From Streptosporangiaceae bacterium (GTDB lineage Bacteria > Actinomycetota > Actinomycetes > Streptosporangiales > Streptosporangiaceae): DNA of 64,000 nt. The DNA lies in the NCBI GenBank assembly GCA_036495485.1, contig DASXMU010000193.1, positions 2,618 to 66,617 on the forward strand, in the 5' to 3' direction. The notes under the pieces are model-generated. The model made no database searches and had not been told where the DNA came from. It was given only the letters and a program-made list of their open reading frames with translations. Both the position numbers and the translations under genes were made by a program. This document shows, piece after piece, positions 1 to 64,000 of this stretch (positions are counted from its first letter, which is position 1; each line of letters begins with the position of its first letter).

Positions 1-1661
1 GCCTTGGTGGCTGGATCGGCGAGGAGGGCCAGCCAGGGGACGTGCTGGTCGGTCTCGGTGAGCGGCAGGCCCGCGCGCCGGGCGGCTGCCTGGATGACGG
101 GCTTGACCTTGGCGATCCTGGCTCGCAACGGGGCCAGCGGGTCGGGCTGGGTGAGGAGCTCCAGGGCCACGCTGAGGGAGAGGGCCGAGGCGGCCAGCGG
201 GGGCAGGACCGCGCGGACGGCGGCGGCCAGGTCTGGGGAAGCCACCGCGAAGCCGATGCGGAGGCCGCCGCAGCAGTAGCCCTTGGAGATGCCGCGCAGC
301 ACGATCAGGCCGGGGGAGGTGTCGGTGAGGGGCGCGGCGCTGGCGCCGGGCGGGAGGTAGCAGGCACAGCTCTCGTCCACGACCAGGACGCCGCCGGCCT
401 GGGCAGTGGTTCTGGCCAGCTCGGCGATCATGGGCAGGGTCCAGTGGCGGCCGGTCAGGGCCGGCCGGTCGAGGACGGTGACCAGCGGGCGGAACGTGGC
501 TACGGCTGTGGCCGCAGCCGCCGGGTCGCTGAGCGGGGCGACGGCTACCTGGCTGCTGACCGCCGCCGCTGCTTCGGCTAGCTGGGGGTGGCCGGACGGG
601 TCGGTGAGGATCGTGCCGCCGTCGGCCAGCCTGGCCAGGCTGTGCAGGAGGCCGGTCACGCCTGCGCCGGCGGTGACCCGGTACGGGCTGAGCGACCAGG
701 CCAGGTTGGCGGCCAGGACCGGGGCGGAGCGGATGCCGCCGTAGGGGTCGGCCAGGTCGTAGCGGCGGGCCAGGGTGGGCAAGCCGAGTGGGTCCGAGGA
801 CAGGCGCGCCCACGCGGCGGTGACCGCTGGCTGGCTGAAGTACGCCTCGTCCGGAGCGGAGCGCAGGTCGATGGCTCCAGGCGGCGCCTGGGCGCGGTGA
901 CCCTCCAGGGCCGAGGTGATGCGCCGGGCTGGGGTGGCGACGAACTGGACGTACCTGGTGGCGATCGTCACGGGAGCACCGGCCTGGAAGTCGGCGTCCG
1001 TACGGGTGACGTCGAAGCCGGCCCGGGTCAGCAGGGCGCCGACCTCGGCCGGGGTGTAGAGGCGGACGTTGTCGGGGAGGACCGCCTCACTCCCGTCGGG
1101 GCGGGTCACCTGGACCTGGCCGCCGCTGCGGCCGGTCAGCGGGTCGTACTCGCGGCTGAACGTGAAGCTTGCGCCGCCGATCTGGGCCTGGGCGCTGGGC
1201 TGGTACATCCGGGTGATCGCCAGGATGCTCGAATGGTCGAGCACGAAGAGGCCGTCACCGGGCAGCAGGCGCCGGACGGTGCGCAGCATCCGGAGCTGGT
1301 CGGTGTCGGAGCCCCAGCCGAAGGCCTGCACGCAGATCGCGGCGTCGGCCGACGGGACGCCCCAGGCAGAAGAGCCGAGCAGATCGGCCTGGTGCAGCTC
1401 CAGCCGCACACCTGCGCCGGCTGCTGCTTGCGCGGCGCGGCGCAGTGCGTAGGCCGAGGCGTCCACGCCGGTTACCCGGAAGCCGCGCCGGGCCAGGGCG
1501 ACCGCGTGCCGGCCGGTGCCGCAGCCCAGGTCGAGGACACGACTGGCCCCGGCGAGCAGGCCGGCCAGGTAGGCGACCTCGGCTTCGGTTCGCTCCGGGG
1601 TGTACTCAGCGTCGGCGTACGCCCAGTAGTCGGCGGTGAAGTAGCTGTCGTACCACGCCAT
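1..1661 (-). CDS. Fusion protein: N-terminal class I SAM-dependent methyltransferase + C-terminal PLP-dependent aminotransferase (class I/II fold); 3' end lies beyond the left edge
   Basis: Absent from the ORF track because it runs off the window. My translation from ATG at 1661 reads MAWYDSYFTADYW...VLDLGCGTGRHAVALARRGFRVTGVD (SAM motif I), then later VVDESCACY...LRGISKGYCCGGLRIGFAV (PLP-lysine SK..GLR.G-type motif). No stop codon down to nt 1. The start lies 4 nt after the stop of the upstream gene (1666). Confidence 0.7.
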   Translation of the reverse strand, partial: MAWYDSYFTADYWAYADAEYTPERTEAEVAYLAGLLAGASRVLDLGCGTGRHAVALARRGFRVTGVDASAYALRRAAQAAAGAGVRLELHQADLLGSSAWGVPSADAAICVQAFGWGSDTDQLRMLRTVRRLLPGDGLFVLDHSSILAITRMYQPSAQAQIGGASFTFSREYDPLTGRSGGQVQVTRPDGSEAVLPDNVRLYTPAEVGALLTRAGFDVTRTDADFQAGAPVTIATRYVQFVATPARRITSALEGHRAQAPPGAIDLRSAPDEAYFSQPAVTAAWARLSSDPLGLPTLARRYDLADPYGGIRSAPVLAANLAWSLSPYRVTAGAGVTGLLHSLARLADGGTILTDPSGHPQLAEAAAAVSSQVAVAPLSDPAAAATAVATFRPLVTVLDRPALTGRHWTLPMIAELARTTAQAGGVLVVDESCACYLPPGASAAPLTDTSPGLIVLRGISKGYCCGGLRIGFAVASPDLAAAVRAVLPPLAASALSLSVALELLTQPDPLAPLRARIAKVKPVIQAAARRAGLPLTETDQHVPWLALLADPATK

Positions 1662-1665
1662 CCGG

Positions 1666-2886
1666 TCAGCTCACTGTGCTCAGCTCACGCCGGGCGAAGA
1701 AATCGCAGACATCGCACAGGTCAGGCGCGTTGGAGACGCCCTCCTGCAGCAGGTACAGGCCGCCGCAGCCACGGCAGGTCGCCTCCAGCAACGGGAACAT
1801 GTAGCGCTGCATGTTCGCGAACGAGGCGAACAGGTAGTAGTCGATACCAGGCCACAGGTCGAAGAGGTGATCGGTCATGGCGTAGGACATGGAGCGCTCG
1901 TCCGGGCCGGAGGTGAACCGGCCGGGCGTGCCCTGGCGGTTCAGCTCGGGTGCGACCAGCTCCAGGTAGAGCGTCAGCTCCTTTTTCGTGATCCGGTACA
2001 GCGGGAACACGTAACGCAGGCCGCCGATCTCCCGCACCGGGATGCCACCCATCCGGAAGCCGCTGGTGAACCAGGTCACCATGCTGGCCACCAGGTCGTC
2101 GGCGTTGAAGCCGAACGCGACCACGCCGGCACCGTGCGACTTGGCCTCCTCCTCCAGCATCCGGCGCAGCACCTGGTGGCCGATCACCATCGTCAGGTGG
2201 TTGCCCTCGCCGGCCACGACCTCGTTCATCGCGTCCACGAACTGGCCCTTGAGCTTGAAGACCCGCTCCACGTCGGCCGAGGTGACGATGACCTGGTGCA
2301 CGCCGAGCCGCTCGCCCGACTCGCGGGCCGCGGCGAACGTCGCCGGTTCCTCCCAGTCGGGCAGGCCGGTGATCGTCACCGCCGTCATGTCGACGGCGGG
2401 CAGCCGGTCCCTGGTCCGCTCCAGCAGGGTCAGGTACGCGACGCTGTCCCTGCCCCCGGACAGGCCGACGACGACCTTGTCGCCCGCCCGCATGACCTCG
2501 TGCGAGAGCATGCTCTGCACGAACGTCTCCTCGACGTACTTCACGAAGCCCACCGAGTCGAACTGCTCGGTCCGCCGCTCCAGCGAGCCCATGGTGTCGA
2601 ACAGCACGCTCTTGCAGTACACCGGGTCGGGTGCGCCGTACACCTGGCGCTTGGGCTTGCGCAGCACGTCCAGGTCGTAGTGCCGGACCTGGCGCACCTC
2701 GATCACGTCACCGGGCTCGACCACCGTGGTCTCCTCCGCGACGATCTTGCCGTTGCGCCAGGTCAGAACGGCGTTAACCGGGATGCCGTTGCGCAGCAGC
2801 ACGTCGGTCAGCGGCTGCCCGGCAGGCGCGGCGAGCTCCTCGGTGGTGCCAAGCTTGTTACGGAAGAACACAGAGGCCACGGTCAT
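1666..2886 (-). CDS. ThiS/MoaD-like beta-grasp domain fused to a PP-loop (adenine nucleotide alpha-hydrolase, TilS/TtuA-like) ATPase with a C-terminal CxxC...CxxC pair
   Basis: Track ORF 1666..3765 is a run-on. Plausible starts are ATG 2886 (MTVASVFFRNKLG) or GTG 2880. The N-terminal ~70 aa resembles ThiS (NGIPVNAVLTWRNGKIV..VEPGDVIEV). PP-loop VVVGLSGGRDS is present. The tail carries CRGC-x16-CDVC. Confidence 0.75.
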   Translation of the reverse strand: MTVASVFFRNKLGTTEELAAPAGQPLTDVLLRNGIPVNAVLTWRNGKIVAEETTVVEPGDVIEVRQVRHYDLDVLRKPKRQVYGAPDPVYCKSVLFDTMGSLERRTEQFDSVGFVKYVEETFVQSMLSHEVMRAGDKVVVGLSGGRDSVAYLTLLERTRDRLPAVDMTAVTITGLPDWEEPATFAAARESGERLGVHQVIVTSADVERVFKLKGQFVDAMNEVVAGEGNHLTMVIGHQVLRRMLEEEAKSHGAGVVAFGFNADDLVASMVTWFTSGFRMGGIPVREIGGLRYVFPLYRITKKELTLYLELVAPELNRQGTPGRFTSGPDERSMSYAMTDHLFDLWPGIDYYLFASFANMQRYMFPLLEATCRGCGGLYLLQEGVSNAPDLCDVCDFFARRELSTVS

Positions 2887-2935
2887 TCTCCTGTTCGGGC
2901 GGGACGCTGATAAGGCTGCTTGTGCACCGGCGGCG

Positions 2936-3859
2936 TCACGGCGGTCCGGCGGGGCCGGTGCCGCGGGGCCAGAATCGCCGTGAGGTGGCGAGGACCAGGC
3001 TCTCCCAGGCGTCGATGCCGGTGCCGAACGGAGCGAGCGCCGCCGCGGCCCGCTCCGGACTGGGCCCGGGTGACAGCGGGGTGAAGTCGGCCCTGAGCAG
3101 GTCCGCCAGCGGGTGGGCGCCCGGGAGCAGGGCAGCCAGCCGCTCGCCGCCGCCTGGCGCGCCGAACTCGGCCGGGCCCACCGCCAGCATGGCGCTCGCC
3201 GTCTTGCGCACCGGCCGCGGCAGGTCGTCCCAGGCTGCGGCGAGCGACCTGGCCCGCAGCCCGGCGAGCACGTCGTGGTAGCCGCGGTCCTCCCGGGGCG
3301 CGCCGAGCTGGAGCATGGCCAGCTGGGTGCGCAGCTCGTCCGGGTCGCCGCTGGCGAAGCCGCCGGGGCCGGCGAAAACAGCGCTCTCGGCGGCGGAGTC
3401 GGCCGCGGAGTCCGCGCTGTGCAGCAGCGAGAGCATGACGTTGATCGAGCCGAGGTCGCCGCGGATCGTGCCGGGGCCGGATCTGGCCGGATCGCTCGGG
3501 CCCTTGGCCTGCTTGAGCCGCTGGTGACCGGTCTGCCCGGCGCCCGCGCGCTGGTCGGCCAGCAGCAGCGCGACAGCCGGGCCGAAGGCGAACAACTGGT
3601 CGACCAGCCGGTAGCGGTAGGCCTGCCAGCTATGGGCGATGCTGACCTCGTGGAAGGCGTCGAGGCCGGCCGGACGGTGCCACAGCACCCGCCAGGCCAG
3701 CGGGGCGAACCCGGCGGTCTCGATCCGCTCGAGGACCGCCGGGCCGAGATGCCTGGCCACGGCATCGGGACCGATCAGCGCGAAGACGGTCCGGTCCCAG
3801 TCGGTATCCGCCACGGTCGGTCCCTTCGGGGTCATTGCCAGGCATGCCGTGCCCACCAC
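2936..3859 (-). CDS. Nucleoside-diphosphate-kinase-like domain protein with ~150-aa C-terminal extension
   Basis: TVFALIGPDAVARHLGPAVLERIETAGF ... GTIRGDLGSINVMLSLLHSADSAADSAAESAVF parallels the NDK core (..IKPD.., GTIRGDF, HGSDS..SA.RE...F), including the catalytic-His position. Start is uncertain (GTG 3859 or ATG 3835). Confidence 0.6.
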   Translation of the reverse strand: MVGTACLAMTPKGPTVADTDWDRTVFALIGPDAVARHLGPAVLERIETAGFAPLAWRVLWHRPAGLDAFHEVSIAHSWQAYRYRLVDQLFAFGPAVALLLADQRAGAGQTGHQRLKQAKGPSDPARSGPGTIRGDLGSINVMLSLLHSADSAADSAAESAVFAGPGGFASGDPDELRTQLAMLQLGAPREDRGYHDVLAGLRARSLAAAWDDLPRPVRKTASAMLAVGPAEFGAPGGGERLAALLPGAHPLADLLRADFTPLSPGPSPERAAAALAPFGTGIDAWESLVLATSRRFWPRGTGPAGPP

Positions 3860-4031
3860 GCCAGGGCCGGGAGCACGATGCGAGGCCTGGACACCAGGCC
3901 GGGCACGGCATGCAAGCTGGGGTGTTCCTACTTGCTCTTGTCGCCGGTGCCACGTGTGTTCTTGGCGATCGGGCGGCGCGCGCTCTGGCGGTGACGGTCC
4001 ACATTCCCTCCTTCCCGTCTGCGGGAGCGTT

Positions 4032-4066
4032 CGCCGGGTCAGCAGCAGCGAGCCGCTGACCCGGCG
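4032..4066 (-). other. Perfect 12-bp inverted repeat (stem-loop) just downstream of the nucleotidyltransferase stop, inside the operon
   Basis: cgccgggtcagc (4032-4043) / gctgacccggcg (4055-4066), with an 11-nt loop. No U-tract follows on the minus strand. Confidence 0.4.
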
Positions 4067-4087
4067 GTTACCTGCGGAAGCCGCACG

Positions 4088-5317
4088 TCATGATCCGTGC
4101 CCAGCTACCTGTTCCGCTTGATCTTCGGCTTGCGCACGCTGACTATGTGACGGTCCACCGGTACCTCCTTCCGGTGTCGAGAGCTCCTCCACCGCTTCCT
4201 CCGAGACCTCGTCACCAATGGTCAGCAGGAAGCGTCCCGCGGGAGTGTCCGCCCAGGCGAGCTTGCCGCGACGGCGCAGCACTGCCGTGCTCACCTCCGG
4301 CCGTGGGCCCTCCAGCGGCAGCCCGAAGGCGAGCAGCCCGGCCGGGACGGCCGTAGCCACCTGCAGCCTGCGCTGCACCGCGTCCCAGACCATCCCCTCG
4401 GCCCGGCTGGGGTTGCCCATCATGAGGCGCCGCTGCAGATGGCGCCCTGTGCCAGCCAGCGGCCTGGTGAAGAACCCGGCGCCGCGGGCCAGCCGGTGCG
4501 CCCGCACCCGTGCCATGGTCCACTGGCCGCCGGGCAGCTCCCGGAGGGAGCCGATGCCGGCCTTGGTGGTCAGCCGGACGAGTTCGGCGTACTCCACGGC
4601 CAGACCCAGCGTGACGACGGCCTCATGCAGCGCGTCGGGCTCTGTGCCGCGCAGAGCATCGTTCAGCAGCGCCGCGTCGAGCAGATCCCTGGCACGGAAC
4701 GGCTGCTCGTAGCGCTCGTGCAGCAGCATGAGCATGTTCTTAACCGCCGGGACACGCCATTGTTCCGGCAGCCGGAGTACCGGCGGGATGCCACCTTGAT
4801 TACCGAGCGTGTAATAGGTGGCCAGCTCAATGCCGTACGGGAGCTGATAGCGGTCCTCGTGTGAACGCCTGAGGCTGACCAGAACCTGCAGTGCGCCGCC
4901 CCAGCAGGAAAACGTCCCCGTGTCCAGTTCCCAGCCGTCCCCGGTCAGGAAACCGACGGCCCGCCACAGGGCAGTTTCCGACGAGGCGATGAAGTCGAGG
5001 TCGTTCATGTACCTGACGAGACCGGGTGGATAGAGCGCGGCCACCTCGAGGCCCTTGATCGTGGTCAGCCCGTCCACGGCCGCCATCAGGCCCGCCGCGA
5101 CCGCGCGGTAGTACTCGACGCGCGCCCGTGCGGCCGCTATCTCGTCGCGTAGCGCCGGGCTGAGCTCATCACCCCCGGCCCGCCAGGCCGAGAAGAGCGT
5201 GGCCGCGAAGGACGGCTGAGCCTTGCGCACCAGCGCCACGATCTCGGCGGGCCCATCGGCCGGCTCGCCCGAGCACGTGAGCAGCGCTTCAACCAGGCTG
5301 TCCGCGGTGAGATCCAT
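4088..5317 (-). CDS. Uncharacterised nucleotidyltransferase family protein (PF14907/NTP_transf_5-like)
   Basis: 409-aa ORF. KGLEVAALYPPGLVRYMNDLDFIASSETALWRAVGFLTGDGWE resembles the NTase motif (R...D[IL]D[LF][LI]) of the family often found in lasso/other RiPP loci. ATG at 5317. Confidence 0.65.
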   Translation of the reverse strand: MDLTADSLVEALLTCSGEPADGPAEIVALVRKAQPSFAATLFSAWRAGGDELSPALRDEIAAARARVEYYRAVAAGLMAAVDGLTTIKGLEVAALYPPGLVRYMNDLDFIASSETALWRAVGFLTGDGWELDTGTFSCWGGALQVLVSLRRSHEDRYQLPYGIELATYYTLGNQGGIPPVLRLPEQWRVPAVKNMLMLLHERYEQPFRARDLLDAALLNDALRGTEPDALHEAVVTLGLAVEYAELVRLTTKAGIGSLRELPGGQWTMARVRAHRLARGAGFFTRPLAGTGRHLQRRLMMGNPSRAEGMVWDAVQRRLQVATAVPAGLLAFGLPLEGPRPEVSTAVLRRRGKLAWADTPAGRFLLTIGDEVSEEAVEELSTPEGGTGGPSHSQRAQAEDQAEQVAGHGS

Positions 5318-5340
5318 GGCGCCCCCCAGCGGATGCGGCG

Positions 5341-5394
5341 GCAGATAATCAAAGCGACGCCGAGGCGAGCCGGCCGGCCCCCACGGCGTCGCTT
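5341..5394 (-). terminator. Intrinsic-terminator/attenuator-like hairpin directly after the 48-aa ORF
   Basis: 11-bp stem aagcgacgccg (5352-5362) / cggcgtcgctt (5384-5394) with a GC-rich 21-nt loop. On the minus strand it is followed by TTTGATTATCT. Confidence 0.45.
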
Positions 5395-5400
5395 CGCCGC

Positions 5401-5547
5401 CTAGTAGTTAGGTACGCAGTCCGTGCAGGTCGTACGGAACTTCATGACCTGGACAGCCTCGCGCTGAGCGAGCATCTTCTCGACCAGGGTGGGGGTGAGC
5501 AGGACCGGGGCAACAGTGGTGTCGGTCCGAGCGATCGTCTCTTCCAT
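5401..5547 (-). CDS. Unannotated 48-aa peptide, candidate RiPP precursor: MEETIARTDTTVAPVLLTPTLVEKMLAQREAVQVMKFRTTCTDCVPNY
   Basis: ATG 5547 to TAG 5401, translated by hand. A GGGAAGGG purine tract lies ~10 nt upstream. 39/48 codons end in G/C. Promoter-like hexamers lie upstream and a hairpin downstream. It is co-directional with the four enzyme genes. Confidence 0.55.
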   Translation of the reverse strand: MEETIARTDTTVAPVLLTPTLVEKMLAQREAVQVMKFRTTCTDCVPNY

Positions 5548-59345: not shown

Positions 59346-59448
59346 TCAGTTAACCAGTGTGCCATACCAGGCTATTCCGCCTGCGCGCCGATACGGGGTG
59401 GGCAATCCCGAAGGTGTGCGGCTGTACGGCGCGCCGCAAGGTGAATGG

Positions 59449-60462
59449 GTGAGCGTGGAGGTTCCGGCTGTGCCTGCAGCAGTGTTGTGTGGCGTGGGTG
59501 GCTATGTGCCAACCTCAGTGGTCACCAATACCGATCTCACCATGCGGTTCAGCACGTCAGAAGAATGGATTAGCTCGCGCACCGGCATCCGGCAGCGCCA
59601 TGTGGTCACCGGCGGGGATTGCACCTCGGATCTCGCGGTGCAGGCTGGTGCGGCAGCCCTGAAGAGCGCCGGGGTGGACTCGGTCGACCTGATCGTGCTC
59701 GCCACTGTCACGCCGGATCATCCGTGCCCGGCGACCGCGCCCTCCGTTGCCCGCCGGCTGGGGCTGGGCCAGGTTGCCGCGTTCGATCTGGGCGCGGCGT
59801 GCAGCGGGTTCGTCTACGGGCTAGCCGTCGTGGCTGGATTCCTGGGGGCTGGTCTAGGCGACCGGGTTTTACTGATCGGGGCGGACGCGTTTTCCACGAA
59901 GCTCAATCCGGCCGATCGCGGCGCGGTGACGGTATTCGGCGACGGCGCGGGCGCGGCGGTGCTGCGCCGTGGGAATGCTGCGGATCTGGGAGCGCTGCTG
60001 GCGTTCGATCTGGGCAGCGACGGGAAGCTGGCCGACCTGCTCATGATTCAGGCGGGTGGCTCTAAGCACCCACCGGTCGCCGGGCAGGTGACGACCGAGG
60101 ATCACTTGTTCTCGATGACGCAGGGCAAGGCGGTGTACCGGCACGCGACCTGCCGGATGACCGCCTCGGCGCAGGCGGTGTTGCGGCGGGCCGGGTGGCG
60201 GCCGGACGAGGTGGACTGGTTCGTGGGTCATCAAGCCAATCAGCGCATCCTGGAAGCCGTCGGCAAACAGATGGGGATCGCGCCTGAGCGGGTGTTCATC
60301 AACATCGATCAGCTCGGCAACACCGTCGCCGCGTCTATTCCGCTCGCACTGGCCGACGCGACGGCCATGGGCGTGCTCAAAGCCGGCCACAAGGTGGTGC
60401 TCACCACGTTCGGCGCCGGCAGCACATGGGGCTCGGTGGCGCTGACCTGGCCGGAACTGTAG
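59449..60462 (+). CDS. FabH-like 3-oxoacyl-ACP synthase III (KAS III)
   Basis: Catalytic triad contexts AACSGF (Cys), GHQAN (His) and GNTVAAS (Asn). The start is uncertain (in-frame GTG 59449/59455; the track start 59359 would run into the riboswitch region). Confidence 0.85.
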   Translation: MSVEVPAVPAAVLCGVGGYVPTSVVTNTDLTMRFSTSEEWISSRTGIRQRHVVTGGDCTSDLAVQAGAAALKSAGVDSVDLIVLATVTPDHPCPATAPSVARRLGLGQVAAFDLGAACSGFVYGLAVVAGFLGAGLGDRVLLIGADAFSTKLNPADRGAVTVFGDGAGAAVLRRGNAADLGALLAFDLGSDGKLADLLMIQAGGSKHPPVAGQVTTEDHLFSMTQGKAVYRHATCRMTASAQAVLRRAGWRPDEVDWFVGHQANQRILEAVGKQMGIAPERVFINIDQLGNTVAASIPLALADATAMGVLKAGHKVVLTTFGAGSTWGSVALTWPEL

Positions 60463-60482
60463 TTCGAGGGAGCGGGGGCGTA

Positions 60483-60731
60483 GTGGACACCGAACAGATA
60501 CGTGCTGTGGTCGTGGAGCTCGTGCTTGGCATGGATGGGGTCGCCGGGCAGGTACCGGCCACGGCGAGCTTCGAGGAACTCGGGATCGACTCGATGAGCA
60601 CGATGGACCTCCTGAGAAAAGTCGAGGATGAGTTCGGCATCGAGGTGCCGGACGAGCAGCTGCCCATGATCGTCGGCATCGAGGATCTGGTGAATTTCGT
60701 CGCGTCCGCGAAACAGGAGGTCAGCAGATGA
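60483..60731 (+). CDS. Acyl carrier protein
   Basis: GTG 60483, with GAGGGAGCGGGGG upstream. 82 aa, with phosphopantetheine site [11 protein letters not shown]. Confidence 0.85.
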
Positions 60732-61600
60732 AGATCAGTCCGCAGGACAGCGGCAAGTTCGGTGTGATCGTGGACGGCTTCGATGCCGGTACGGCGCCGG
60801 ATGAGGACATCGCGACCTTGAAGCGAGCGGTCTACACCGGCAAGATCGCTGTTCTGAAGGACCAGGATCTGGGCGTCCGCGAGTTCCTGGAGCTGGGTCG
60901 CCGGCTGGGCAAGCCGGTGGTCTACTACGAGCCCACCTACCACCACCCCGAGGTCAGCGAGGTTTTCGTCTCCTCCAACGTCGAGCAGGGTGGTAAGCAG
61001 CTAGGTGTGCCGAAGACCGGGCAGTTCTGGCATTCGGACTATCAGTTCATGCCCCGCCCCTTCGACATCACCCTGGTCTATCCACAGGTGGTCCCGGCCA
61101 GGAACCGGGGCACGTTCTTCATCAACCTGTGCGACGCGTACGACAGGCTGAGCGAGGATCTCAAGGCGGCGGTGAAGGACACCGTGGCCTGGCACAGCCC
61201 GCGCCGGTATTTCAAGATCCGGCCGTCCGACGTATACCGCCCCATCTGGGAGCTCACCGACGAAATCGACCGGCGCACGCCGCCGGTTTCCTTCCCCACC
61301 GCGCACGAGCACCCACACACCGGGGAGACCGTCCTCTACATCAGCGAAGCCCTCACGTGCTCCATCCAGGACGGGGAGGGCCGGGACCAGCCCGAGCTGC
61401 TGCGGACGCTGCTGGCCGCGACCGGGCAGCTTGACACCAGTTACGAGCACGAAAACATCCACCTGCAAACCTTCGAAAAGGGTGATCTGCTGGTGTGGGA
61501 TAACCGCAGCCTGATCCACCGGGCTCTGCATACGGCGACCGCAGAGCCGGCAGTGTCCTACCGGGTCACCCTCTATGACGATCAGGACGCGACCGGATGA
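60728..61600 (+). CDS. TauD/TfdA-family Fe(II)/2-oxoglutarate dioxygenase, Rv0097/ScoE-like (isonitrile synthase type)
   Basis: FWHSDYQF (HxD) and [10 protein letters not shown] (distal His). YYEPTYHH and [11 protein letters not shown] resemble Rv0097/ScoE as I recall. It sits next to FcoT-like and FadD10-like genes. Confidence 0.8.
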
Positions 61601-62148
61601 CCGCCGCGACCGAAGCGCAGCCTGTCAGCTATCCCACGGACGAGGATCTGATGGCGCGAGTGCTGCGCTGTTACCGGCCGAACTGCCGGTATCTGACCGC
61701 GATGACCGTGTCGGTTACCGGATCGGGCAGCGGCACAGACATCGCAGTGCGGGGATTCGCCGGCCTGGCGATCGGCGAGTCTTGCTACATCGACGACACC
61801 GGCCACCTCAACGCGGTCGAGGTCAACATCTCCTACAACCAGATGTGCTATTACGTCATCGCCAAGCTGGTCCAGGAACAGCTGGGGCCGGTCTTCTCTA
61901 CCTGGACGATGGCCGACTTCTGGCGTCACCAGCTTCCGGACATCCTGATCACCAAGCTGGTCAGCCGGTTCCGCCGGCCGATCGACCGGAGCTGCTTCTT
62001 TGGCGAGTTCGAGTTCGGCCATGTCAAGCGGCGCAGGTTCGATCCGGCCGGCCCTTCGCTTGTCGCCCTGGATACAGCGTTCCGCTTCTGGGATGACCGC
62101 GACGGCTGCGCCGACGGCGAGGTCGTGGCCGCGATCGTCTCGTCCTAG
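61597..62148 (+). CDS. FcoT-like hot-dog thioesterase-family protein, Rv0098/ScoD-like
   Basis: 183 aa, the same length as Rv0098 as I recall. [28 protein letters not shown] overlap with the upstream stop. Confidence 0.75.
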
Positions 62149-62165
62149 AGAGGTTCCGGGAAGAG

Positions 62166-63740
62166 GTGCTGTACTACCCGAACCTGCGGACCGTGGCCTC
62201 GGTAGCCGGCTTCCATGCCAGCCGGGCTCCCGGCACGACCGCGATCATCTGCTCCGGCCGGCCGGTGACCTACGCCCAGCTGCACCGGGAGAGCAACCGG
62301 GTCGCTCACGCCATCTCAGCGGCGGGGCTGCCGCCCGGGAGCCGGGTGGCCTATCTGGGCAAAGAGTCCGAGCACTACTACGAGATCCTGTTCGGCGCCG
62401 CGAAAAGCGGCACCGTACTCGTGCCGGTCAACTGGCGGCTCACGGCGGGCGAGGTGGACTACGTCCTGCGCGACTCGGGCAGCAGGTTGCTGTTCGCCGA
62501 GCACGTGTTTGCCAAGACGGCCGCGAAAGTCCAGGCGGACCTGCCGGAGCTGGACACGATCGTGGAGCTGGACCCGCCCCGCGAGAGCGATGGTGGGTAT
62601 GCGGCGTGGAAAGCTGACCAGCCAGATGGCGACCTGGCACCCGGCACAGGGCCGGATGATCCAATCGTGCAGCTCTATACCAGCGGCACCACGGGCCTGC
62701 CCAAGGGCGTCGTGCTGGCGCAGCGAAGTTTCTTTGCCATCCGGGACGCGCTCGCGGGCGAAGGGCTGGACTGGGTCGACTGGCGCACCGGAGACCGCAG
62801 CCTGATCGCTGTCCCCGGGTTCCACGTCGGCGGGCTCTGGTGGGCTATGCAGGGATTCAGCGCCGGGATCACCAATGTGGCCATGCCCTCGTTCGACAGC
62901 ACCGTTGCGCTGCGGCTGATCAGGGACCTGGGCATCACCACCACCTGCATGGTGCCGTCTATGCTGCGGTTGCTGCTGGCCGAGCCGGGCGTTCGATCCG
63001 CTGACTTCACCACAATGCGCAAGATCGTCTATGGCGGTTCCCCGATGGCCGAGACGTTGCTGAAAGAGGCGATCGACGTCTGCGGCGCCAGCTTCGCCCA
63101 GTTCTATGGTTTGACCGAGACCGGCAACACCGCCGTGTGCCTGCCACCGGCCGACCATATTCCTGGCAGCCCACGGCTGCGGGCCGCCGGACGGCCCTAC
63201 CCTGGAGTCCAGGTCAAGATCATCGACGTGGATGGCAGCCCGCTGCCACCCGGTGACATCGGCGAGATCTGCCTGCACACCCCCGCGCGGATGCTGGAGT
63301 ACTGGCGCAATCCCGCGGCCACGGCGCGGACATTGGCGGACGGGTGGATTCACACCGGCGATGCCGGCTATCTCGATGCGGACGGCTACGTCTACATCAG
63401 CGACCGGATCAAGGACATGATCATCGTGGCCGGCGAGAAGATCTACCCGGCCGAGATCGAGAACGCGCTGGCGAAACACCCCGCGGTGGCTGAGGCTGCG
63501 GTCGTCGGGATTCCCGATAGCCGGTTCGGCGAGGCGGTGTGCGCGTTCGTGGCACGGCGGCCCGGGCACCAGGCCGGGCCGGGGGAGCTCATGGTGTTCC
63601 TCAAGGACTCGCTCGCCGCCTTCAAGATCCCGTCCCGGTTCGAGTTCGTCGATCAGGTGCCGCGCAACCCCAGTGGGAAGATCTTGCGCCGCCAGCTGCG
63701 CGACCAGTTCTGGCGCGACCGCGACCGCCAGGTCAACTAA
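62166..63740 (+). CDS. Fatty acyl-AMP/acyl-ACP ligase, FadD10/ScoC-like
   Basis: AMP-binding LYTSGTTGLPKGV. RSFFAIRDALAGEGLDWVDW and HVGGLWW resemble FadD10 as I recall. GDAGYLD..GY.YI.DR.KD, and SGKILRRQL at the end. Confidence 0.85.
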   Translation: MLYYPNLRTVASVAGFHASRAPGTTAIICSGRPVTYAQLHRESNRVAHAISAAGLPPGSRVAYLGKESEHYYEILFGAAKSGTVLVPVNWRLTAGEVDYVLRDSGSRLLFAEHVFAKTAAKVQADLPELDTIVELDPPRESDGGYAAWKADQPDGDLAPGTGPDDPIVQLYTSGTTGLPKGVVLAQRSFFAIRDALAGEGLDWVDWRTGDRSLIAVPGFHVGGLWWAMQGFSAGITNVAMPSFDSTVALRLIRDLGITTTCMVPSMLRLLLAEPGVRSADFTTMRKIVYGGSPMAETLLKEAIDVCGASFAQFYGLTETGNTAVCLPPADHIPGSPRLRAAGRPYPGVQVKIIDVDGSPLPPGDIGEICLHTPARMLEYWRNPAATARTLADGWIHTGDAGYLDADGYVYISDRIKDMIIVAGEKIYPAEIENALAKHPAVAEAAVVGIPDSRFGEAVCAFVARRPGHQAGPGELMVFLKDSLAAFKIPSRFEFVDQVPRNPSGKILRRQLRDQFWRDRDRQVN

Positions 63741-63751
63741 GGGGAGTCAAA

Positions 63752-64000
63752 CATGAGCCAGCAGCTGACCCTGGACCGGATCCGGGCCGATGTCGCCGAA
63801 CTGCTGTACGAAGATCCGGGCGATGTGGACGACACCGCGGATCTGCTGGCGTCCGGACTGGACTCGGTACGCATCCTCACCCTGGTCGAGCGGTGGCGCG
63901 AGGCTGGCGTCCAGGTCAGCTTCGTGGAGCTGGCCGAATCCCCCACCCTGGCCGCCTGGTGGATGCTGCTGAAGCCGCGCCTGCCTGGAGCCGGCCATGG
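63752..64000 (+). CDS. Carrier protein (EntB-ArCP/Rv0100-like), or the N-terminal carrier domain of a larger synthetase; runs off the right edge
   Basis: AAGGGGAG before ATG 63752. Hand translation MSQQLTLDRIRADVAELLYEDPGDVDDTADLLASGLDSVRILTLVERWREAGVQVSFVELAESPTLAAWWMLL..., with no stop before nt 64000. Confidence 0.7.

Follow-up and report, generated by a model that had tools for sequence, protein, structure and literature searches.

We describe a compact gene cassette at the right edge of a 64,000-nt stretch of Streptosporangiaceae DNA (GenBank assembly GCA_036495485.1, contig DASXMU010000193.1, positions 2,618 to 66,617; the whole stretch is called the window hereafter). Six tightly packed plus-strand genes (59449–64000) and a condensation-domain (C-domain) gene beginning at 63997 make up a seven-gene cassette that, judged from sequence, is probably dedicated to a short β-isonitrile acyl unit, with a final product that is probably not the known copper-binding lipopeptide. 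The family as such is well known: the cassette belongs to the isonitrile-forming core of isonitrile lipopeptide (INLP) clusters, and not to a canonical cluster with a C-A-T-R (condensation, adenylation, thiolation, reductase) non-ribosomal peptide synthetase (NRPS). With somewhat more than even confidence, we regard it as a functional, reduced variant of the INLP pathway that has lost A-T-R and transport genes and whose acyl acceptor is not encoded in cis. INLPs are copper/zinc metallophores tied to mycobacterial virulence, of which a handful of structures are known.

Results

The enzymes of isonitrile formation

The third gene of the cassette (60728–61600) encodes a TauD-family Fe(II)/2-oxoglutarate (2OG) enzyme, which we annotate as a ScoE-type (3R)-3-[(carboxymethyl)amino]fatty acid oxygenase/decarboxylase. 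It scored 443.3 bits against the NCBIfam ScoE equivalog (cutoff 400), about 350 bits above its taurine-dioxygenase scores, and matched crystallised ScoE (PDB 6dch) with E = 6e-122 and 63% identity, whereas taurine dioxygenases matched it at about 1e-14 only. All 11 functional residues checked agree with ScoE: Y66, Y67, Y71, H102, D104 and R127 correspond to ScoE Y96, Y97, Y101, H132, D134 and R157, and K163, R165, H264, H268 and R279 to ScoE K193, R195, H295, H299 and R310. The iron triad (H102, D104, H264), the residues that hold the substrate (Y66, Y67, Y71, K163, R165, R279) and the mobile pair of the 2OG site (R127, H268) are, thus, all kept. In ScoE, substitution of the equivalents of Y66, Y71, R165, R127 or H268 abolishes or lowers activity, and the remaining checked residues contact substrate or iron in the structures (PMC7949033). 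The dioxygenase also keeps the family consensus at 90 of 92 conserved columns (here and below, columns at least 95% conserved among relatives outside the cassette's own clade). The original prediction took this enzyme for an isonitrile-type oxygenase, and that assignment holds: the passing equivalog score, the grouping with ScoE and the conserved key residues together rule out an ordinary taurine/sulfonate dioxygenase.

At the six selectivity positions, P1–P6, the dioxygenase has E, A, L, S, P and Y where ScoE has E, G, F, S, V and Y, and is therefore ScoE-like save at P2, P3 and P5; the proline at P5 is as in Rv0097. The P5 residue of AmcA, although unnamed, has been reported as Rv0097-like, and the authors linked this deviation to a propyl instead of a methyl side chain (PMC11811631). 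Because of the match to Rv0097 and this published link, a C4–C6 unit is to be expected, and the selectivity pattern as a whole points to short chains.

The next gene (61597–62148) encodes a 183-aa hot-dog enzyme of the ScoD/SAV606/CmiS1 type, which had been called FcoT-like from its sequence. Indeed, it scored 178.5 bits against Pfam FcoT (cutoff 27), matched PDB 5wsx/5wsy, which we take to be SAV606, with E = 3e-52 and Rv0098 (2pfc) with E = 6e-23, and keeps the consensus at 27 of 27 conserved columns. Enzymes of the SAV606/CmiS1 type attach glycine to a 2-enoyl thioester and hydrolyse the product (PMC11284099).

The breadth of the TauD Pfam family, and the fact that CmiS1-type enzymes also serve in the synthesis of β-amino acid starter units (PMC11284099), would leave room for a pathway without an isonitrile, in which the TauD-family protein works as an ordinary dioxygenase, of sulfonates or other substrates, or the FcoT enzyme contributes to a CmiS1/CmiS2-like β-amino acid route. 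We give such a pathway next to no chance. The score of the dioxygenase clears the ScoE cutoff and stands far above its taurine-dioxygenase scores, and its substrate-binding and mobile 2OG-site residues are conserved without exception. No polyketide synthase (PKS) was found in the list of window open reading frames (ORFs), filtered by GC content at third codon positions (GC3), or in Pfam and homology checks of the cassette and nearby genes, and the cassette and these nearby genes included no CmiS2-type FAD oxidase either, the ORFs further upstream not having been scanned for one. The CmiS1/CmiS2 route was rejected because the partner of the hot-dog enzyme is ScoE-type and not a CmiS2-type FAD oxidase (PMC11284099).

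Gene order in related loci

Searching one genome per species, we recovered 80 loci that encode a relative of the dioxygenase; the best match to the cassette in the species-representative genome collection was 78% identical. The order dioxygenase, FcoT, ligase, carrier, C domain/NRPS occurs in 46 of the 80 loci, and the window conforms to it. The products of Rv0097–Rv0101 are listed in the same sequence (10.1101/121228).

In the ligase slot the window has a 524-aa adenylating enzyme (62166–63740; AMP-binding and AMP-binding_C domains) in the position of ScoC/FadD10. It is a putative acyl-ACP (acyl carrier protein) ligase, which may load an ACP rather than form an acyl-CoA. It shares 56–80% identity with its syntenic counterparts in the 46 loci, and keeps the consensus at 166 of 170 conserved columns. 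Its score on the FadD10 equivalog was 255.8 bits (cutoff 726), and its match to the FadD10 structure 4ir7 was moderate (E = 1.3e-69). The gene that follows, ACP2 (63753–64000, with its stop codon 4 nt past the window), encodes an 83-aa carrier in the ScoB/Rv0100 position, in agreement with the expectation that the last gene is a carrier running off the window. The full 83-aa product, as completed on the contig L001 described below, has a PP-binding domain (42.9 bits) and a GLDSV serine motif, and shares 50–77% identity with the carriers that related loci have between ligase and NRPS.

All six cassette genes that lie within the window are present, each at or near the coordinates noted earlier, and their domain matches, with E-values down to 1e-122 versus ScoE structures, rule out chance. 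The assignment to an INLP-type (Rv0097–Rv0100/ScoB–E-like) cassette is borne out by the dioxygenase that groups with ScoE, the FcoT-like protein, and the ligase, carrier and C domain syntenic with 46 of the 80 loci. The gene order had also been thought unusual, with an ACP first and a KAS III (β-ketoacyl-ACP synthase III) added. The first part did not stand, as the carrier after the ligase sits in the Rv0100/ScoB slot, as it does in 46 of the 80 loci. The added KAS III did stand, being part of an extra pair that is found in 23 of the 80 loci.

Several of the 80 loci differ more deeply. In L009–L027 (Micromonospora, Actinophytocola, Saccharothrix, Actinosynnema) a ScoE homologue (68–73%) is directly followed by a carrier and an NRPS of about 1280 aa; ScoD and ScoC are not adjacent, and the nearest KAS III, 5 kb upstream, is a distant one (about 35%). 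The database proteins that match L025, L022 and L027 (P0143, P0154, P0170) are C-A-T-TE (TE, thioesterase) enzymes. In L074, L078 and L080 (Streptomyces virginiae and relatives), 2.1 kb separates the ScoE homologue from that of ScoD, with no adjacent matches to ligase, carrier or C domain; they probably represent clusters of the amycomicin type, which S. virginiae has been reported to have.

A lone condensation domain follows ACP2

A C-A-T-(R) NRPS or a reductase had been expected just past nt 64000. We read the downstream content from L001, a 7064-nt contig from SRR11835595 that encodes exactly the same ligase protein and overlaps the window from 59312, with 4687 of 4689 overlapping bases equal (2 differences). 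The expected enzyme is absent. Instead, ACP2 is followed by a gene whose start lies in the last letters of the window (63997–64000, ATGG, with the ATG at 63997–63999), overlapping the end of ACP2 by 8 nt, and which encodes a free-standing C domain of 449 aa (L001 4686–6035). A generic 245-aa short-chain dehydrogenase/reductase (SDR) lies 64 nt further on, and a convergent gene comes after it. A, T and R domains were found neither on L001 nor in the 64-kb window, and none turned up within 10 kb of the seven other loci with a C domain only (C-only loci, below). The missing NRPS or release enzyme counts against a canonical lipopeptide; it does not refute the formation of an isonitrile.

The 449-aa ORF is one complete C domain, covering positions 4–449 of the 456-position Pfam Condensation profile with the motif HHIALDG intact. 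It aligns to positions 4–428 of the 1442-position NCBI MxcG (C-A-T-R) model (522 bits), and its best PDB match is 7c1k, a 434-aa NRPS chain (E = 2e-91) that we take to be the lipoinitiation 'starter' C domain of RzmA. The match to 1l5a ('amide synthase'), presumably VibH, gave E = 1e-38.

Two other explanations of the downstream sequence were rejected. The SDR was considered as a conserved ketoreductase or release enzyme; its position and orientation are not conserved in other C-only loci, and by NCBIfam it is generic and not a thioester reductase. Remnants of A-T-R downstream of the C domain were looked for, and none were found.

The C-only form defines a clade

Of the loci compared, only the window/L001 and its closest relatives L002, L003, L007 and L008 have a C-only ORF (404–503 aa), which is followed by unrelated genes (GH18, binding protein, esterase). 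A protein search found at least 12 distinct C-only homologues of 404–434 aa at 63–68% identity, and the context was recovered for three further loci (L082, L084, L085), bringing the clade to at least eight loci. A neighbour-joining tree of C domains placed the C-only loci in a monophyletic group, sister to the full-length L004, L005 and L006 and with the window as its deepest branch. All eight C-only proteins end within about 25 residues of one another at the C/A boundary, and their tails beyond vary in length and sequence. The eight loci have only the seven cassette genes in common, as all flanks differ. The short ORF ends in a stop codon and is followed by other genes in eight independent loci, which rules out truncation by assembly. 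The C-only form is a truncation descendant of a C-A-T-R enzyme, and not an assembly accident.

In nearly all of the loci the C domain heads an ORF of 1300–1670 aa, the C-A-T-R organization having been confirmed by Pfam for L006 only. L004, sister of the C-only clade, has an NRPS of the form C-A-T-TE (1278 aa) and not C-A-T-R; close cassettes therefore use three off-loading solutions: a reductase, a thioesterase and none. One member of the clade, L003 (CAWFTJ010000008.1, 860 kb), is labelled 'Candidatus Melainabacteria' yet has actinobacterial-type GC3 (0.81–0.94), and is probably a mis-binned or mislabelled metagenome-assembled genome (MAG).

The cassette might still make the canonical di-acylated, lysine-type isonitrile lipopeptide if the NRPS were split and the lone C domain worked with an unlinked A-T-R or A-T-TE protein. 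MxcG/ScoA-type C-A-T-R enzymes, whose acceptor is carrier-bound lysine, have an N-terminal C domain orthologous to the lone one, which is as constrained as the C domains of full NRPSs (below). A C | A-T-TE split may exist in another ScoE-associated architecture, where the C-only P0022 and the A-T-TE protein P0173 are each recorded with a JGI contig of 7464 nt. We nevertheless consider a split enzyme unlikely, given the absence of A, T and R domains around the eight loci. Among the 120 best relatives of the L006 A-T-R region there was no C-less partner at clade-typical identity, a weak negative given that the proteins cannot be linked to genomes; the C-less hits were limited to P0054 (902 aa filling a 2836-nt contig), P0079 (45% identical) and the TE-type P0173. 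Furthermore, the C-only tails differ, and so hold no conserved docking element, and the linked exporter and importer genes are missing as well.

Selection and decay in the C-only clade

Within the C-only clade, at a synonymous divergence of 0.4–0.8, median pairwise dN/dS was 0.21 for KAS III, 0.25 for ScoE, 0.36 for ScoD, 0.20 for ScoC, 0.22 for ACP2 and 0.37 for the C domain, these values being approximate because extreme GC3 compresses dS. The median of 0.50 for ACP1 is inflated by a mis-framed hit in L003; other pairs versus the window gave 0.29–0.36. Since C domains inside full NRPSs gave 0.32–0.34, the lone C domain is about as constrained as they are and has therefore been under normal constraint since the truncation.

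These values bear on the view that the cassette is a decaying remnant which, after the loss of A-T-R and transport, is itself heading to loss, yielding free 3-isocyano acid or nothing, with a lone C domain that has no role. Decay does occur in the clade, which weighs against a functional pathway: in L082, KAS III and ACP1 are gone and ScoE has lost its first ~227 codons, and in L085 the genes for ScoE, ScoD and the ligase carry frameshifts. Genes for export and import that are conserved in full-length relatives are missing, and the lower GC of the cassette relative to its flanks fits a foreign, dispensable insert. On the other hand, the frameshifts in the L085 contig may stem from sequencing errors, the full set of seven ORFs is intact in the window, as it is in at least five further lineages, dN/dS is 0.2–0.4 throughout, with the C domain constrained as in full NRPSs, and the proteins of the window cassette carry the consensus residue in 460 of 474 family-conserved columns. 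A decaying remnant thus appears quite unlikely. In L082 (5742–11287) a DUF7380/EMARD_N gene abuts the cassette remnant, in which FcoT, ligase, carrier and C domain are intact.

An extra KAS III and carrier protein upstream

The first gene of the cassette (59449–60462) encodes a FabH-type KAS III with two KAS III domains (Pfam ACP_syn_III and ACP_syn_III_C). It scored 357.6 bits on the NCBIfam KAS III subfamily (cutoff 249) and 310.8 bits on TIGR00747 (cutoff 292), its best solved relative is 2x3e (E = 1e-96), and it keeps the consensus at 84 of 87 family-conserved columns. The catalytic motifs, read from the translation, are intact: Cys in AACSGF, His in GHQAN and Asn in LGNT, presumably matching C112/H244/N274 of E. 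coli FabH. The second gene (60483–60731) encodes ACP1, a carrier of 82 aa of the fatty acid synthase (FAS) type, with a PP-binding domain (E = 3.6e-11), weak NCBIfam matches of the AcpP/AcpM type and a DSM serine motif.

A KAS III 51–76% identical to that of the window lies directly upstream in 23 of the 80 loci, and a small ACP accompanies it in all but L077. These loci include Kutzneria sp. 744, Lentzea, Actinomadura, Micromonospora, Actinocrispum and the Streptomyces locus L077, and most of them carry a full-length NRPS ORF of 1300–1670 aa. Because the pair recurs upstream in so many loci, the ACP in first place is an extra carrier tied to KAS III and not the result of a rearrangement. L077 (8688–17756) has a dioxygenase 82% identical to crystallised ScoE, with a KAS III 51% identical to that of the window directly upstream; from this locus, the association with KAS III may extend to Sco-type clusters.

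KAS III might instead be a copy of FabH that confers self-resistance against an isonitrile which hits condensing enzymes, in which case the ligase would load the enoyl substrate as in the Streptomyces pathway. The isonitrile amycomicin indeed targets FabH (10.1101/317362), isocyanides are reported to target essential metabolic enzymes covalently (PMC11290450), and the intact Cys-His-Asn motifs are what a working replacement would need. A resistance gene, however, would have no need of the dedicated operon ACP with which this KAS III nearly always travels, and the pair also occurs in clusters with metallophore-type transport genes, pointing to a chalkophore over an antibiotic. We therefore see self-resistance as very unlikely.

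The combination of KAS III and isonitrile also suggested a cluster of the amycomicin/aerocyanidin type, which was rejected. There was no PKS among the ORFs of the 64-kb window (the largest being 854 aa) and no PKS or P450 on the 7-kb L001; no P450 was found among the ~20 domain-scanned ORFs nearest the cassette, those further upstream having been listed and not domain-scanned.

Operon structure and genomic context

The genes are closely spaced, with 4-nt overlaps at the junctions of ACP1 with the dioxygenase and of the dioxygenase with FcoT, and gaps of 12–20 nt between the others within the window. The KAS III start that we favour is the GTG at 59449, which has an upstream AGGTG Shine-Dalgarno sequence. 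The longest KAS III ORF begins at 59359, merely 22 nt from an FMN (flavin mononucleotide) riboswitch (RF00050, 59209–59337, minus strand, 80 bits, E = 2.5e-17), the leader of the divergent ribE-ribBA-ribH operon; 59449 is the better start because that at 59359 would abut the riboswitch. The spacer from riboswitch to KAS III start is about 111 nt, and the promoter of the cassette must therefore sit in it.

The cassette, flanked by the housekeeping rib operon on one side and unrelated genes on the other, has a GC content of 0.661 versus 0.706 in the rest of the window, and a GC3 of 0.81–0.87 versus about 0.9–0.96 in neighbouring genes. The RibBA of the window is 84–90% identical to proteins of uncultured actinomycetes, one member of this close cluster being labelled Streptosporangiaceae, while the closest relatives of the cassette are in MAGs labelled Pseudonocardiaceae. 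The low GC, and the contrast between a Streptosporangiaceae-like RibBA and a Pseudonocardiaceae-type cassette, are consistent with horizontal acquisition.

We compared 22 KAS III-type loci, of which 18 have a full-length NRPS, and found major facilitator superfamily (MFS) genes in 12, Peripla_BP_2 in 14, FecCD permease in 8 and extracytoplasmic function (ECF) sigma factors in 8 (for instance, L005 17557–20118, and L029 6457–7512 and equivalents). This set looks like export and uptake of a metallophore. None of these genes was found near the C-only cassettes, the window included, save for an ECF sigma gene in L084. In that locus (1–5456), an intact C-only cassette has CopC/CopD, DUF1775, DUF5134 and an ECF sigma/anti-sigma pair immediately upstream; this is the only copper-related context seen in the clade. 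Copper genes were looked for near the window cassette and none were found, the neighbours being a sugar ABC transporter, an α-glucosidase, hisG and the rib operon.

Discussion

The results above are best accommodated by a reduced but functional INLP pathway, in which a translationally coupled seven-gene operon would produce a short (about C4–C6) β-isonitrile acyl thioester and pass it to an acceptor not encoded nearby. In the first step, KAS III would condense a short acyl-CoA with malonyl-ACP1, and the reductase and dehydratase of the housekeeping type II FAS, or the adjacent SDR, would convert the product to 2-enoyl-ACP1; housekeeping enzymes are needed here because no ketoreductase or dehydratase is conserved in the cassette. 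The ScoD-type enzyme would, by homology, then add glycine at C3 and hydrolyse the thioester, giving a 3-[(carboxymethyl)amino] acid, which the ScoE-type enzyme, with all its catalytic residues present, is predicted to decarboxylate oxidatively to the 3-isocyano acid. Synteny and the revised Sco pathway suggest that the ligase re-activates this acid and loads it onto ACP2.

The use of two carriers would amount to a division of labour, with KAS III and ACP1 serving the first stage and the ligase and ACP2 the second. In the five-gene Sco system, one ligase and one carrier serve both stages: the substrate of ScoE is the free acid, and ScoC works on ScoB in two rounds (10.1101/308460), the second of which reloads the 3-isocyano acid on the carrier for the NRPS C domain (10.1101/308460; PMC11284099).

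In the last step, the MxcG/ScoA-type C domain would move the isonitrile acyl group from ACP2 to a nucleophile in trans. VibH of vibriobactin synthesis and the PapA-type acyltransferases of mycobacteria are free-standing enzymes with soluble acceptors, and by likeness to free-standing C enzymes such as VibH a soluble amine would be the most likely acceptor. More broadly, since no A or T partner is linked to the C domain in eight loci, we infer a soluble amine or alcohol as the simplest acceptor. It is a tentative possibility, to which we would assign less than an even chance, that a ScoA-type C domain has been repurposed for a non-NRPS acceptor (a polyamine, an amino acid, or an alcohol or amine of the envelope) and that KAS III/ACP1 is the hitherto unassigned source of 2-enoyl-ACP for ScoD-type enzymes in many actinobacterial INLP clusters.

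Several points weigh against a functional reduced pathway, in addition to the decay in L082 and L085, the approximate nature of the dN/dS values and the reliance on housekeeping enzymes noted above. The genes past nt 64000 are known from the near-identical contig L001 and not from the window itself. The 183-aa protein scored 207.4 bits on the NCBIfam ScoD equivalog, below the cutoff of 250, and so does not reach strict equivalog status, and the NCBIfam typing of the ligase goes no further than a generic fatty-acid ligase (PRK06187, 552 bits). An A-T-R partner may be encoded elsewhere in the genome, and our assignments of a product, an acceptor and a function for KAS III/ACP1 are all deduced from sequence.

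A conserved clade under selection that retains the C domain and the enzymes of isonitrile formation, yet is devoid of amino-acid-loading and release domains and of linked transporters, implies a different end product and possibly a different role. If the acceptor is indeed not an NRPS, the product would belong to another class of isonitrile metabolites than the diisonitrile-lysine chalkophores, and the seven-gene system offers a small, testable route to what a ScoA-type C domain acylates alone. The KAS III/ACP pair of the 23 related loci may, in turn, explain where the 2-enoyl-ACP substrate comes from. In the searchable literature we found no discussion of KAS III in INLP clusters, of C-only INLP variants or of the source of 2-enoyl-ACP; the widespread addition of KAS III/ACP1 and the conserved, transporter-less C-only clade are the features that we did not find there.

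Comparison with known systems

The cassette shares with the INLP clusters of M. tuberculosis (Rv0097–Rv0101), M. marinum (MmaA–E), S. coeruleorubidus (ScoA–E) and S. thioluteus (sfa/SF2768) the same four-enzyme isonitrile logic and the order Fe/2OG oxygenase, FcoT-type thioesterase, ligase, carrier and MxcG-like starter C domain. L077 and the window, for example, have five colinear genes at 49–61% identity, besides the upstream KAS III. Unlike those clusters, which have a single-module C-A-T-R NRPS that loads lysine, becomes di-acylated and releases its product reductively, the cassette as read on L001 has only the 449-aa C domain after ACP2, and so neither built-in lysine nor reductive release, and it adds KAS III and a second ACP upstream. 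It also differs from its full-length KAS III-type relatives, being without MFS, FecCD and periplasmic-binding-protein genes.

The amycomicin and aerocyanidin clusters (amc/aec) use the same ScoB–E-type isonitrile module on a short chain (10.1101/317362; PMC11811631). Unlike the window, however, they extend the isonitrile starter by PKSs and carry P450s for the epoxide.

Like VibH and the PapA-type enzymes, the C domain of the cassette is a single protein of about 450 aa with HHxxxDG intact, encoded right after its putative donor carrier, and all eight members of its clade end at the C/A boundary. Unlike VibH, it is far closer to N-terminal C domains of NRPSs, as seen from its E-values with 7c1k and 1l5a and its score on the MxcG model. 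It corresponds to the first domain of the myxochelin synthetase MxcG (C-A-T-R), the whole model of which is spanned by the full-length relatives; it differs from MxcG in consisting of that first domain only and in its probable donor, an isonitrile acyl-ACP in place of the 2,3-dihydroxybenzoyl-ArCP (aryl carrier protein) used by MxcG.

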